Made by a program: the position numbers. 38,462 bases of DNA from Candidatus Nanohaloarchaea archaeon (GTDB lineage Archaea > Nanohalarchaeota > Nanosalinia > Nanosalinales > Nanosalinaceae). The stretch is from positions 1 through 38,462 of the forward strand of contig JAWOFP010000040.1 in the NCBI GenBank assembly GCA_046497485.1. Direction: 5' to 3'. Positions within the stretch are counted from its first letter, which is position 1; every line of letters starts with the position of its first letter. Shown piece by piece: positions 36,001-38,462 of the stretch.

Positions 36001-38462
36001 TTGATCCGCCTGTGGACTCTCCTATCGAGATCACAGGATAATCGAGTGCTGCCACAGCTGCTCCGGCTCCTCCTGAGGAACCTCCAACTACACGAGAATT
36101 ATCATGAGGGTTCTTAGGGGTTTCAAATGCACAGTTTGTGGAGAAAGTTCCAAAACCAAACTCATCCATGTTAGTCTTTCCAAAGAACTGTCCTCCAGAT
36201 TCTTTCAGTCTTTCAACTACTGTCGCATCAAATACAGGCCTGTAATCTTCTAGCATCTTGCTTCCTGCAGAAGTAACTGTTCCTTCTGTACAGATAGCAT
36301 CTTTAACTAGGAACGGGATACTTTCGAGCTCTCCTTCATTTTCTTCCCCTTCTTCAATTTCTCTCATGAAGTTGAGGCCTTGATTCTTCTCCTTCAACTC
36401 TTCCAAAAATTCTTTGTTTGAGTATTTTTCCCTGTTCTGCAGAAAGTCTTTAACTGTGCCTTCTTCCATAATTCTTCTCCTCTAATTTAATTATCGATTT
36501 ATGCTGAAGGGCCTTTGAAGAAGCTGTCTTCAACATTTTCAGTGTTTTCAAATGGGTTATCAATAGACTCTTCAACTTCATCTTTCCGAGTCTCGGACTT
36601 TACTTCTACAGGATGGAACGATGGTTCAGTATCAGAAGTATCGATCTCATCCAGTGTTTCAAACATTTCAAGTATCTCATTAAAGTCCTTTTCTAGGCCT
36701 TCTACCTCATCTTCATCAAGTTTTATCCTTGAGTTTTCTGCGACCTTTCTGATTTCCTCTTTCATAGATAACTGTTGGAATAGAATGTTTTTTAGGTTTG
36801 AATGATGTTAGAAAATCAGGTCAGTGAACAGTTATGAACGGTTCAACAATAAGGTTTATAAAGCGGCGTAGAAAATGTTAGTATAGTAAGAACTACATTT
36901 GTTCGCTTGGGCGCGAACGATTCAGATCGAACTTGACTCGCGGGCACGAGATCAGGTTCATGCGACATATCGAATCGAACTTTGGGCAAAGTTCGAACAA
37001 GTATCATGTGTTGAAAGTCTTGGGCAAGACTTCAAGTTATTCTAAGGTAGAATTACCTACGCCGATTTAAAAAGGTTAGGTATATCGATACACGGGAGAA
37101 AAGTATAATGGAATCTATAATCGACAACGCTCAAAATACAGAAAAGACCGAAAATCTAGAAGATGTAAAAGATGCTAAAATTGTAGTTGTAGGCGTTGGA
37201 GGAGCTGGCAACAACCAGGTAACAAGAATACAGAATAAGGAAATTGAAGGCGCAGAAACAGTAGTAATCAATACAGATAAACAACACCTACAGATGAGCT
37301 CAGCTGACCGCAAAATACTGGTCGGAAGAGATCTTACAAAAGGCCTCGGAGCAGGAGGACAGCCAGAAAAAGGCGCAAGATCCGCAGAAGAAAACCGAGC
37401 CGAACTAAGAAACCTGTTCAAAGACGCAGACATGGTCTTCCTTACCGCAGGAATGGGAGGAGGAACGGGGACAGGAGCCTCACCAGTACTCGCAGAAATC
37501 GCAAAGAAAGAAGACTGCATAGTAATCGGAACAGTCACAATGCCTTTCGAAATTGAAGGCGCAAGAATGAGCAAAGCAGAAGAAGGCCTCTACAAACTAA
37601 GACAGCATGTAGACACAGCAATCGTAATTGAAAACGACAAACTACTTGATATCGCAGGAGACATGCCTCTTGACCAGGCCTTCGGAGTAGCAGATGAATT
37701 AATTACAACAATGATCAAGGGAATCACAGAGACAATCTCCCAGCCAAGCTTGGTTAACTTAGATTACGCAGATGTTCAGGCAATCATGAACGAAGGCGGA
37801 GTAGCAGTTGTAGGATACGGGGAGTCCGACACCAACAACAAAGGAAAGGAAGCGATCCACGAAGCACTCTCCAATCCACTACTTGATGTAGAGTTCGATG
37901 GAGCAAACGGCGCACTACTTCATGTAGCAGGAGGCACAGACCTCACATTGAACGAAATCAACGAAGTAGGACAACATGTAAAATCCAAGCTTGACAACAA
38001 CGCCCAGACAATCTGGGGTGCAAGAGTCAAAGACGAACTACAGGGAACACTCCAAGTAATCTCAATCATCACAGGAGTAGAAAGCCCTTACATCCTTGGA
38101 GATGTCGAGGAAGAACAGGAAACTGAAGTAACAGGAGATGTAAACGACTTAGGACTGGAAGTGATGAAGTAACAAAGTTAGAGGCCTAACGGCCTGTAAA
38201 ACTCATGCTAGCAGGAAGCCAGAGGAAGGCCTCAAAGAGCCGGGAAGTATATTCAAAACCCCCTCCCCCCCACTTTCCCGGGAGACTGGAGGCCTACCTC
38301 AAATTCCTGCAATAAAATCTATATTAAGGAAAGGCCCTTTCAACCGCCTGGTAAAAACCGCCGATCTACTATACCCTGCTGGCGGCTGGAATCTACGCCG
38401 GCATCGATCTCATGCCGCTGTCTGAACGTATCGACCTAATTGCAGGCAAGAGCATCAGGACC

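Follow-up and report, generated by a model that had tools for sequence, protein, structure and literature searches.

What stands before ftsZ2 in the archaea from which CdrS is reported missing? This ribbon-helix-helix protein is the one known archaeal regulator of ftsZ2, and every archaeal clade but DPANN is reported to have it (PMC7439475). Its gene lies directly upstream of ftsZ2 and is co-transcribed with it, a short cdrS transcript being described alongside a read-through transcript (PMC8406309). Our window was a stretch of 38,462 nt, the whole of one contig of a near-complete nanohaloarchaeal genome (G000), in which an array of hairpins sits in the gap between gatC on the minus strand and ftsZ on the plus strand. 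Every Nanohalarchaeota genome whose locus could be used has such an element in the position of cdrS, as do many contigs of Aenigmarchaeota type. The locus raises the question of which strand would carry the array as RNA, and what that RNA could do for ftsZ2.

The ftsZ gene downstream of the array was taken as ftsZ2 because the paralogous ftsZ of these genomes, which is ~50% identical to it, adjoins ORFs read by eye as secE, spt5 and rpl11, a neighborhood that we take to be the ftsZ1 context. A structure search did not tell FtsZ1 from FtsZ2; synteny did. Upstream regions of ftsZ2 were collected from 65 of 70 Nanohalarchaeota genomes, covering all five families. They comprise 66 loci, as one assembly gave two (the duplicate was dropped for motif counts), and in five genomes the region 5’ of ftsZ2 could not be used. 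The neighbors of the locus are gatC/gatA or asnS-like genes, with gatC lying less than 700 nt from ftsZ2 in 56 of the 66 loci; in family f1 a NusA-like KH gene follows two genes downstream, replaced by other neighbors in f4 and f5. The labels asnS, PRC barrel, aIF5A, cdc6 and reverse transcriptase were assigned by eye and are presumptive. The slot itself holds no conserved ORF: the median longest ATG ORF on the plus strand is 7 aa, and 10 of 65 reach 30 aa.

Features of the gatC–ftsZ2 interval and its flanks (window coordinates; transcripts and promoters are predictions)
Feature	Position	Strand	Basis or remark
gatC	36499..36765	-	Pfam GatC; divergent neighbor, context only, outside the element
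gatC promoter, leaderless type, A-tract box ~31 nt upstream	~36789-36796	-	upstream boxes compared in 61 loci
TGAAC-N5-TGAAC repeat with inverted GTTCA, probable transcription-factor site for P1	36825..36846		pattern conservation
Promoter P1: A-rich BRE, box TTTATAAA 36855-36862, AA element at +18..21, TA initiator	36846..36885	+	matrix and signature counts
Predicted antisense RNA, ~174 nt, four hairpins with GCCC loops	36870..37043	-	start 37043 (P2); fold z -4.42
Predicted ftsZ2 5’ leader with G-loop array, 223 nt	36885..37107	+	no U4 tract; fold z -2.62
Hairpin 1, loop UUGGGC	36899..36920	+	folding; helix 1 of covariation alignment
Hairpin 2, loop CGGGCA	36929..36958	+	folding and covariation
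Hairpin 3, loop GGGC	36975..36996	+	folding; two-sided changes in 5/9 and 7/8 pairs (two alignments)
Hairpin 4, loop GGGC	37015..37032	+	folding and covariation
Promoter P2, antisense: BRE 37078-37074, box TTTTTAAA 37073-37066, AA element, TA|GAA initiator, start 37043	37040..37078	-	matrix and signature counts
Leader hairpin with P2 box in its loop	37054..37082	+	moderate covariation
Shine-Dalgarno-like GGGAG	37094..37098	+	duplex scan with the anti-SD motif
ftsZ, assigned ftsZ2	37108..38172	+	TIGR00065, Pfam; paralogue’s gene context
3’-UTR hairpin with a C-tract loop at 38259-38271; a second RNA element conserved at this locus	38211..38310	+	fold z -3.35

A preliminary description of this locus had reported four hairpins with GGGC-type loops, a folding z of -3.15, GGG on one strand only and mostly three to four such loops in 26 of 30 ftsZ loci. 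The four hairpins were recovered, each with GGGC at the 3’ side of its loop, and the array gave a z of -3.16 on the plus strand and -4.42 on the minus strand. Over the 66 loci the plus-strand median was -2.57, with values below -2 in 43. Among 31 genera the medians were -2.16 (plus) and -4.54 (minus), the minus strand being lower in 30, which is partly a composition effect of that G-poor strand. In 65 arrays YGGG(C/A) occurs 291 times on the plus strand and twice on the minus strand. The distribution proved wider than first described, with an array ahead of ftsZ2 in all 65 genomes with a usable locus, and the usual number lower, at two to four motif loops plus further unpaired copies. Nor does every loop read (U/C)GGG(C/A), as had been proposed: 192 of 246 predicted hairpins carry the motif and the rest lack it, and one genome (L061) uses UUGGCG in its loops instead, a variant of which one further copy occurs in L254. 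A loop change to GGGA in genera g17 and g18 was confirmed and extends to g19; the fourth base of the motif is A in 43 of 44 copies in these three genera, and in the other genera 241 of 256 copies have C. On the FtsZ2 tree (62 rows; four short rows omitted) the GGGA arrays occupy as many as three positions; because this tree splits genus g18, we do not claim independent switches.

The covariation count missing from the preliminary description supports the stems. Two-sided changes were found in 11 of 21 pairs among 15 sequences and in 14 of 21 pairs among 29, counts above those of 500/500 shuffles and of all slid controls; these alignments cover 44 of the 66 loci, all in family f1, and kin sequences in such comparisons are not independent. 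A covariance model gave 49 hits in 48 of the 70 genomes, every one at the ftsZ2 locus, and the array stays ahead of ftsZ2 also in the 10 of 66 loci that lack an adjacent gatC. A scan of G000 for motif hairpins beyond the array returned two, neither near a start codon. Among viral sequences there was one chance match inside a phage ORF and otherwise none. Searched to E 10, the window has no Rfam match within the array, in line with the earlier search to E 5, and none lies over any array to E 1 in 20 related loci (one unrelated hit lay elsewhere). As noted before, the five ncRNA sequences in Table S3 of PMC10266531, compared by eye, do not contain the array on either strand, and literature searches returned no description of a hairpin array before ftsZ2. 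Bearing on this novelty, a conserved 266-nt intergenic RNA of Nanohaloarchaea, STRG.4577.1 (PMC7002113), may correspond to the same locus.

Two promoters flank the array. They were read with the BRE consensus and scored with a matrix trained on 187 unrelated promoters of G000. The conserved TATA box reported upstream of the array is that of P1, which scores higher forward than reverse in 63 of 65 genomes and carries forward BRE, AA and TA signatures in 62, 60 and 55 of 65. Since leaderless genes of G000 have their box 30-31 nt before the start, the P1 transcript is predicted to begin near 36885 (box+30), rather than at 36879 as first proposed. P2 had been taken as a second promoter serving ftsZ, and its signatures point the other way. 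The matrix favors its reverse orientation in 63 of 65 genomes (median 7.5 in reverse and 1.7 forward, the training median being 7.6), and a model-free count found BRE, AA and TA in 57, 59 and 53 of 65 on the minus strand, at the same offsets as in P1, against 0, 12 and 4 on the plus strand. The “invariant TTCTA” formerly read as the RNA end fits the same orientation. In 52 of 66 loci TTCT keeps a distance of 21-23 nt to the second box, a spacing too constant for an RNA end, and TTCTA is the reverse complement of the TA|GAA initiator, placed exactly where the P2 reverse initiator is expected. The matrix orients the A-tract promoter of gatC itself poorly, preferring the correct forward direction in only 38 of 61 loci; TTTAAAAA could therefore also fire forward, and the second box could show weak forward activity.

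Other structures were considered around P2. The leader hairpin that holds its box showed, in the commoner register, two-sided change in 5 of 7 pairs (21 two-sided cells vs 9.1 in shuffles), with only 76% of cells paired; the window itself favors a shifted register. A second alternative helix nearby did not covary above shuffles. TTCTA-N3-TAGAA, tried as an RNA helix or as an operator or factor site, showed no two-sided change, and the reverse initiator reading was preferred.

We then compared candidate 3’ ends on the two strands. Intergenic terminators of Haloferax are T stretches, and haloarchaea also terminate at non-U signals (PMC7237163). On the plus strand, the 40 nt before the second box lack a U4 tract in 64 of 65 genomes; U4+ tracts were present in the 3’ flanks of 13 of 28 tRNA and 27 of 68 convergent-gene controls, as against 1 of 65 stretches before P2. 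Given the backward-facing P2 and the missing plus-strand U-tract, the plus-strand array is best read as belonging to the ftsZ2 leader and the discrete RNA as minus-stranded. By its sequence signals the array most likely forms a ~220-nt leader of ftsZ2 (predicted lengths 171-393 nt in 63 genomes); the fallback of the preliminary description, a multi-site leader of ftsZ, is thus the better reading of this strand. The predicted minus-strand RNA would span 135-245 nt across loci. Its 3’ end is placed near a weakly marked U-tract over the AA element of P1 (U4+ in 25 of 65, compared with 27 of 181 promoters used as controls), and its promoter-proximal end would lie ~65 nt short of the ftsZ2 start codon, so that direct blocking of the ribosome is unavailable to it. 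We consider this layout, an ftsZ2 leader with an antisense transcript, likely to be correct.

The expression table of PMC10266531 gives values for annotated genes only. A search of sequencing runs with L070:2680-3300 at 80% likeness returned three runs with small shares, as contigs only. One such contig covers L070 2647-3120 and begins ahead of P1; two more begin within the final hairpin and run across the P2 box as far as ftsZ. All are strandless, without defined ends and possibly DNA.

Beyond the Nanohalarchaeota, 80 metagenome loci were retrieved by scanning with the most divergent FtsZ2; with three nanohaloarchaeal ones set aside, 69 others had enough upstream DNA and 48 remained after dereplication. 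Of ten FtsZ clusters looked up, five were named Aenigmarchaeota and two “archaeon”, the remaining three carrying no taxon. In most of these loci tandem G-motifs lie between an upstream box and a second box, with TTCTAAG at the same spacing. The motifs are GGGC, GGGU, GGAC or GGUA, with stems in some clades and many arrays stemless, and in the 40 loci with a locatable box (8 of the 48 have none) GG outnumbers CC by 216 to 64. P2 scores higher in reverse in 35 of 40, a count made partly circular by the search pattern for the box, which itself included the reverse BRE. A TA initiator stands forward in 35 of 40 and in reverse in 23 of 40, and with the forward initiator so common P2 may be bidirectional in the outgroup. 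In 13 of 40 loci the closest ORF upstream lies on the plus strand, so that there a leftward RNA is not the leader of that ORF. The nanohaloarchaeal covariance model gave two weak hits in 38 outgroup loci; with alignable similarity near zero, kinship with these arrays rests on position, layout and motif. The element is real and conserved across at least two phyla.

What could such a pair of RNAs do? Our tentative working mechanism, held at somewhat under even odds and drawn by analogy, is loop-initiated antisense control of ftsZ2 resembling that of CopA/CopT. P1 would produce an ftsZ2 mRNA whose long leader shows a G-rich motif three to seven times, for the most part on the 3’ sides of loops, and P2, facing P1, an RNA of ~170 nt that is the exact complement of the array and displays matching C-rich loops. 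The antisense RNA would meet the nascent leader loop-to-loop (GGG:CCC, aided by U-turns) and zip up, and ftsZ2 output would fall, either by masking of the repeated sites from a factor that reads them or by decay of the duplex; collision of the two polymerases may contribute. The ratio of P1 to P2 activity would then set the FtsZ2 level, a role held by CdrS in non-DPANN archaea.

The case for pairing consists of the facing promoter signatures, the folding of both strands, the YUGG loops and the single copy per genome, and it has close precedents. In CopA/CopT, pIP501 RNAIII/RNAII and ColE1 RNA I/RNA II, a small RNA from a facing promoter is complementary to a leader (PMC4485353, PMC10798244), an arrangement predicted here from sequence signatures. 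The YUNR U-turn marks recognition loops of antisense systems (PMC4485353); CopT has a YUNR, and CopA and CopT make first contact through CCG/GGC (PMC10798244). The array loops resemble this combination of YUNR and a G/C-rich first contact: YUGG, a YUNR motif, occurs in 169 of 199 plus-strand loops, the other 30 having no YUNR. As in the plasmid systems, both strands of the nanohaloarchaeal array form hairpins, whereas many outgroup arrays are stemless. The ColE1 pair has three stem-loops, and its several kissing loops are likewise comparable to a multi-loop array. Unlike the plasmid systems, the array is chromosomal and archaeal, precedes a gene for cell division, not a replication gene or primer, carries three to seven identical motifs that change together, has stemless Aenigmarchaeota versions and lacks an Rfam match. 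The element most likely works like plasmid antisense control and is a member neither of a plasmid family nor of the CsrB family. If this is correct, plasmid kissing-loop control would have a counterpart on an archaeal chromosome, and the element would represent a new RNA family.

A protein reader of the repeated motif, as the preliminary description had suggested, stays a main rival to this antisense mechanism. It would keep the same two promoters and treat the repeats as protein-binding sites, with pairing secondary; we regard it as unlikely, if the most serious of the alternatives. Cis-antisense pairing needs no identical loops, and the copies nonetheless change together, which counts against the pairing mechanism. 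The concerted, lineage-wide changes (GGGC, GGGA, GGCG; in the outgroup GGGU, GGAC, GGUA), the unpaired extra copies and the stemless outgroup repeats, with 0-8 GGG tracts per array, fit a protein reader better. Two variants can be drawn. In one, the minus-strand RNA would be a sponge for a reader of C-rich motifs, which also binds C-loops in the ftsZ2 3’ UTR; in the other, the G-motifs of the leader would load several copies of a regulator. KH domains prefer C-rich motifs and are candidates for the first; CCC is unpaired in 264 of 294 copies (90%) on the minus-strand RNA, C4+ tracts occur in the C-tract loops of 46/46 ftsZ2 trailers examined, which could be a target of the same protein, and family f1 has the NusA-like KH gene near the locus. 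Against this, in the residues listed, read by eye, the KH protein showed no change that tracks the GGGA lineages, the gene is replaced in f4/f5, no further target hairpins were found in G000, and the 3’-UTR tract does not follow the fourth base of the motif. The array also shares with CsrB a short motif repeated in hairpin loops and single strands, with variable stems and copy number (PMC7652899). We can, with some hesitation, combine the two ideas: DPANN archaea would possess an ancient RNA-based controller of ftsZ2, made of a multi-loop leader and an antisense partner from inward-facing promoters, whose motif is read by a conserved RNA-binding protein, co-evolves with it by lineage and is possibly tied to the 3’-UTR C-loops.

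It is improbable that the array is a free plus-strand sponge of ~160 nt made from P1 and ending at TTCTA, with ftsZ2 served by a forward P2. P1 is strong, the plus-strand hairpins covary, A-tract boxes do work forward at gatC, and in L046 the box stands at leaderless distance from the start codon, all of which suit such an RNA. Minimum-energy folds are also richer in G-U on the plus strand (454/3539 pairs vs 239/3214), an excess that we rejected as proof of strand since it is gone in an unbiased count (GU 53 vs AC 46 in 139 hairpins; no strand preference). Weighing against the sponge are the forward signatures of P2 (BRE in 0/65, initiator in 4/65) and the missing plus-strand U-tract. Moreover, in 14 of 63 genomes no more than 39 nt separate the box from the start codon, so that a forward start there would cut the Shine-Dalgarno-like motif. 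CsrA (PF02599) was found in 0 of 70 genomes, with the control positive in 3 of 14. CsrB, CsrC and RsmZ resemble the array in their motifs in loops and single strands and their variable stems and copy number; they differ in that the array motif is GGGC/GCCC, not GGA (GGGA being confined to g17-g19), and in that the array is locked to one gene and its plus strand shows no U-tract terminator of its own. Of the original proposal, then, the conserved multi-site structured RNA is supported and the free-standing CsrB-like sponge is not, no matching hairpins having been found in other leaders of G000 either.

A device acting at the level of DNA or by interference is similarly improbable. Here each promoter would act on the other through collision or supercoiling, while the palindromes would serve as cruciforms, factor sites or a G-quadruplex instead of as folded RNA. 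The equal GU and AC mismatches look like transitions in a DNA palindrome, and at least four GGG tracts are present in 57 of 65 nanohaloarchaeal arrays; this holds for only 12 of 40 outgroup arrays and not for L061, so a four-tract RNA G-quadruplex is not family-wide, and GG-only variants exist. The stem sequences, moreover, change freely with compensation. A replication origin at the array was rejected, as boxes recognized by the G-string of ORB elements lie on another contig (C43), beside an ORF read as cdc6.

Closing of a loop between leader G-loops and 3’-UTR C-loops, or sensing of the CCA ends of uncharged tRNA by UGG loops, is very remote. It is invited by the mRNA architecture of all five families, with G-loops near one terminus and C-loops near the other, by the complementarity of UGG to CCA and by the gatC/gatA or asnS-like neighbors. 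Yet leaders match their cognate trailers no better than non-cognate ones (8.02 against 7.71 nt in 44; 7.59 against 7.42 nt in 34), L061 with its UUGGCG retains a plain C-tract, GGGG, the best partner, is rare, and CGGG and AGGG variants lack UGG.

Other known regulators were compared with the locus. ANTAR target leaders have paired hexaloops with G1 and G4, a rule that only the GUGGGA loops fit (16 of 192); the ANTAR domain PF03861 was found in 0 of 28 near-complete genomes, with the control also 0 of 14. E. coli StfZ, a cis-antisense RNA at the 5’ side of ftsZ, as predicted here, lowers FtsZ when overexpressed; it is bacterial, 366-552 nt long and made from three promoters, and the abstract of its report mentions no repeated-loop array (PMC9628754); kinship in sequence with the array would not be expected. 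By analogy with the cdrS-ftsZ2 operon, the array, standing in the same slot before ftsZ2, probably does the same job as CdrS. It differs from that operon in that the slot has no conserved ORF; no small ribbon-helix-helix ORF was found there, and PF01402 was absent from the locus among the 150 matches listed of 287. The proposed layout predicts two start sites to the base, and cultured nanohaloarchaea with RNA-seq exist (PMC10266531).

Upstream of P1, 34 of the 47 loci of family f1 have a TGAAC repeat, usually at distances from the box that step by ~10 nt; by its pattern this repeat is a probable transcription-factor site for the promoter. The strict TGAAC-N5-TGAAC pattern occurs once in G000.

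The ftsZ2 trailers, the regions downstream of the gene, have a conserved element in the 3'-UTR that was found in all 46 trailers examined (46/46). Its stems are long and variable, its loops are C-tracts, and a U-rich run closes its 3' side; it had no Rfam match. The C-tract loop reads CUCCCCUCCCCCC in f1 and is of the UUCCCCCAC type in f4 and f5, all families within Nanohalarchaeota. In the outgroup, metagenome ftsZ2 loci whose FtsZ clusters are partly named Aenigmarchaeota, CACTCTGGA was present in 12 of 34 trailers, with CCACACCCC as an alternative.

Features in the window
Feature	Position	Strand	Remarks
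tRNA match, 124 nt	25272-25395	-	Rfam match; missed by ARAGORN
GH10 glycosyl hydrolase (xylanase family) gene	29754-30719		
Prefoldin-UPF0147-sepF and small zinc-ribbon gene	33828-35074		Immediately past gatA
TGAAC direct repeats, 10-nt spacing	36825-36846		Upstream of P1, the predicted plus-strand promoter of the ftsZ2 leader
Conserved 3'-UTR element	38211-38310		3' of ftsZ2; loci L001-L030, L118-L137

A stem that starts at position 38329 has its partner strand at one end of C63, another contig of the same genome, which continues from there into the genes usually found downstream. The window's final ~110 bases (38350-38462) look foreign, and the contig end may therefore be misassembled or carry an insertion.

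At loci L067-L105, two to three genes 3' of ftsZ2, family f1 has genes for a conserved NusA-like KH protein (PRK06418-like, by a match below the cut-off) and for RLI/ABCE1, and f4 and f5 have an ORF that presumably resembles aIF5A. In 22 of 41 outgroup loci (L176-L252), ftsZ2 is followed by a very small acidic ORF that carries a (W/Y)DP(L/F/M) motif, often near an ORF that we take, by its appearance, to be PRC barrel-like.

Upstream of P1, the TGAAC repeats occurred in 34 of 47 f1 loci, at distances that step by about one helical turn; the pattern had no second occurrence in the genome. Most Aenigmarchaeota-type loci (L181-L252) have the palindrome CAAAATATATTTTG ~25-35 nt past the second box, the predicted antisense promoter, and directly before the Shine-Dalgarno sequence, where it could be either an initiator region or an operator. 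Some of these loci have a second, CAAAATATATTTTG-like palindrome upstream of P1.

Two sequence records stood out. A nanohaloarchaeal ftsZ2 locus (L071, 89% identity) sits in a record labelled 'Colwellia polaris', a label that looks wrong, and the two differing ftsZ2 loci of assembly G041 (L018 and L066) suggest that it is a mixed bin.

Elsewhere in the window, sepF lies 2.3 kb from ftsZ2, the GH10 gene is inserted in the proteasome-SBDS-exosome gene run together with LD-carboxypeptidase and methyltransferase genes, and the tRNA match probably reflects a tRNA with an intron. On contig C43 of this genome, inverted ORB-like boxes with G-strings (~2850-3150) adjoin an ORF that we assume to resemble cdc6; this is a probable replication origin. 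On contig C56 (1-1365), an ORF presumably resembling reverse transcriptase comes after a template-like repeat rich in AAC; together they probably form a diversity-generating retroelement.
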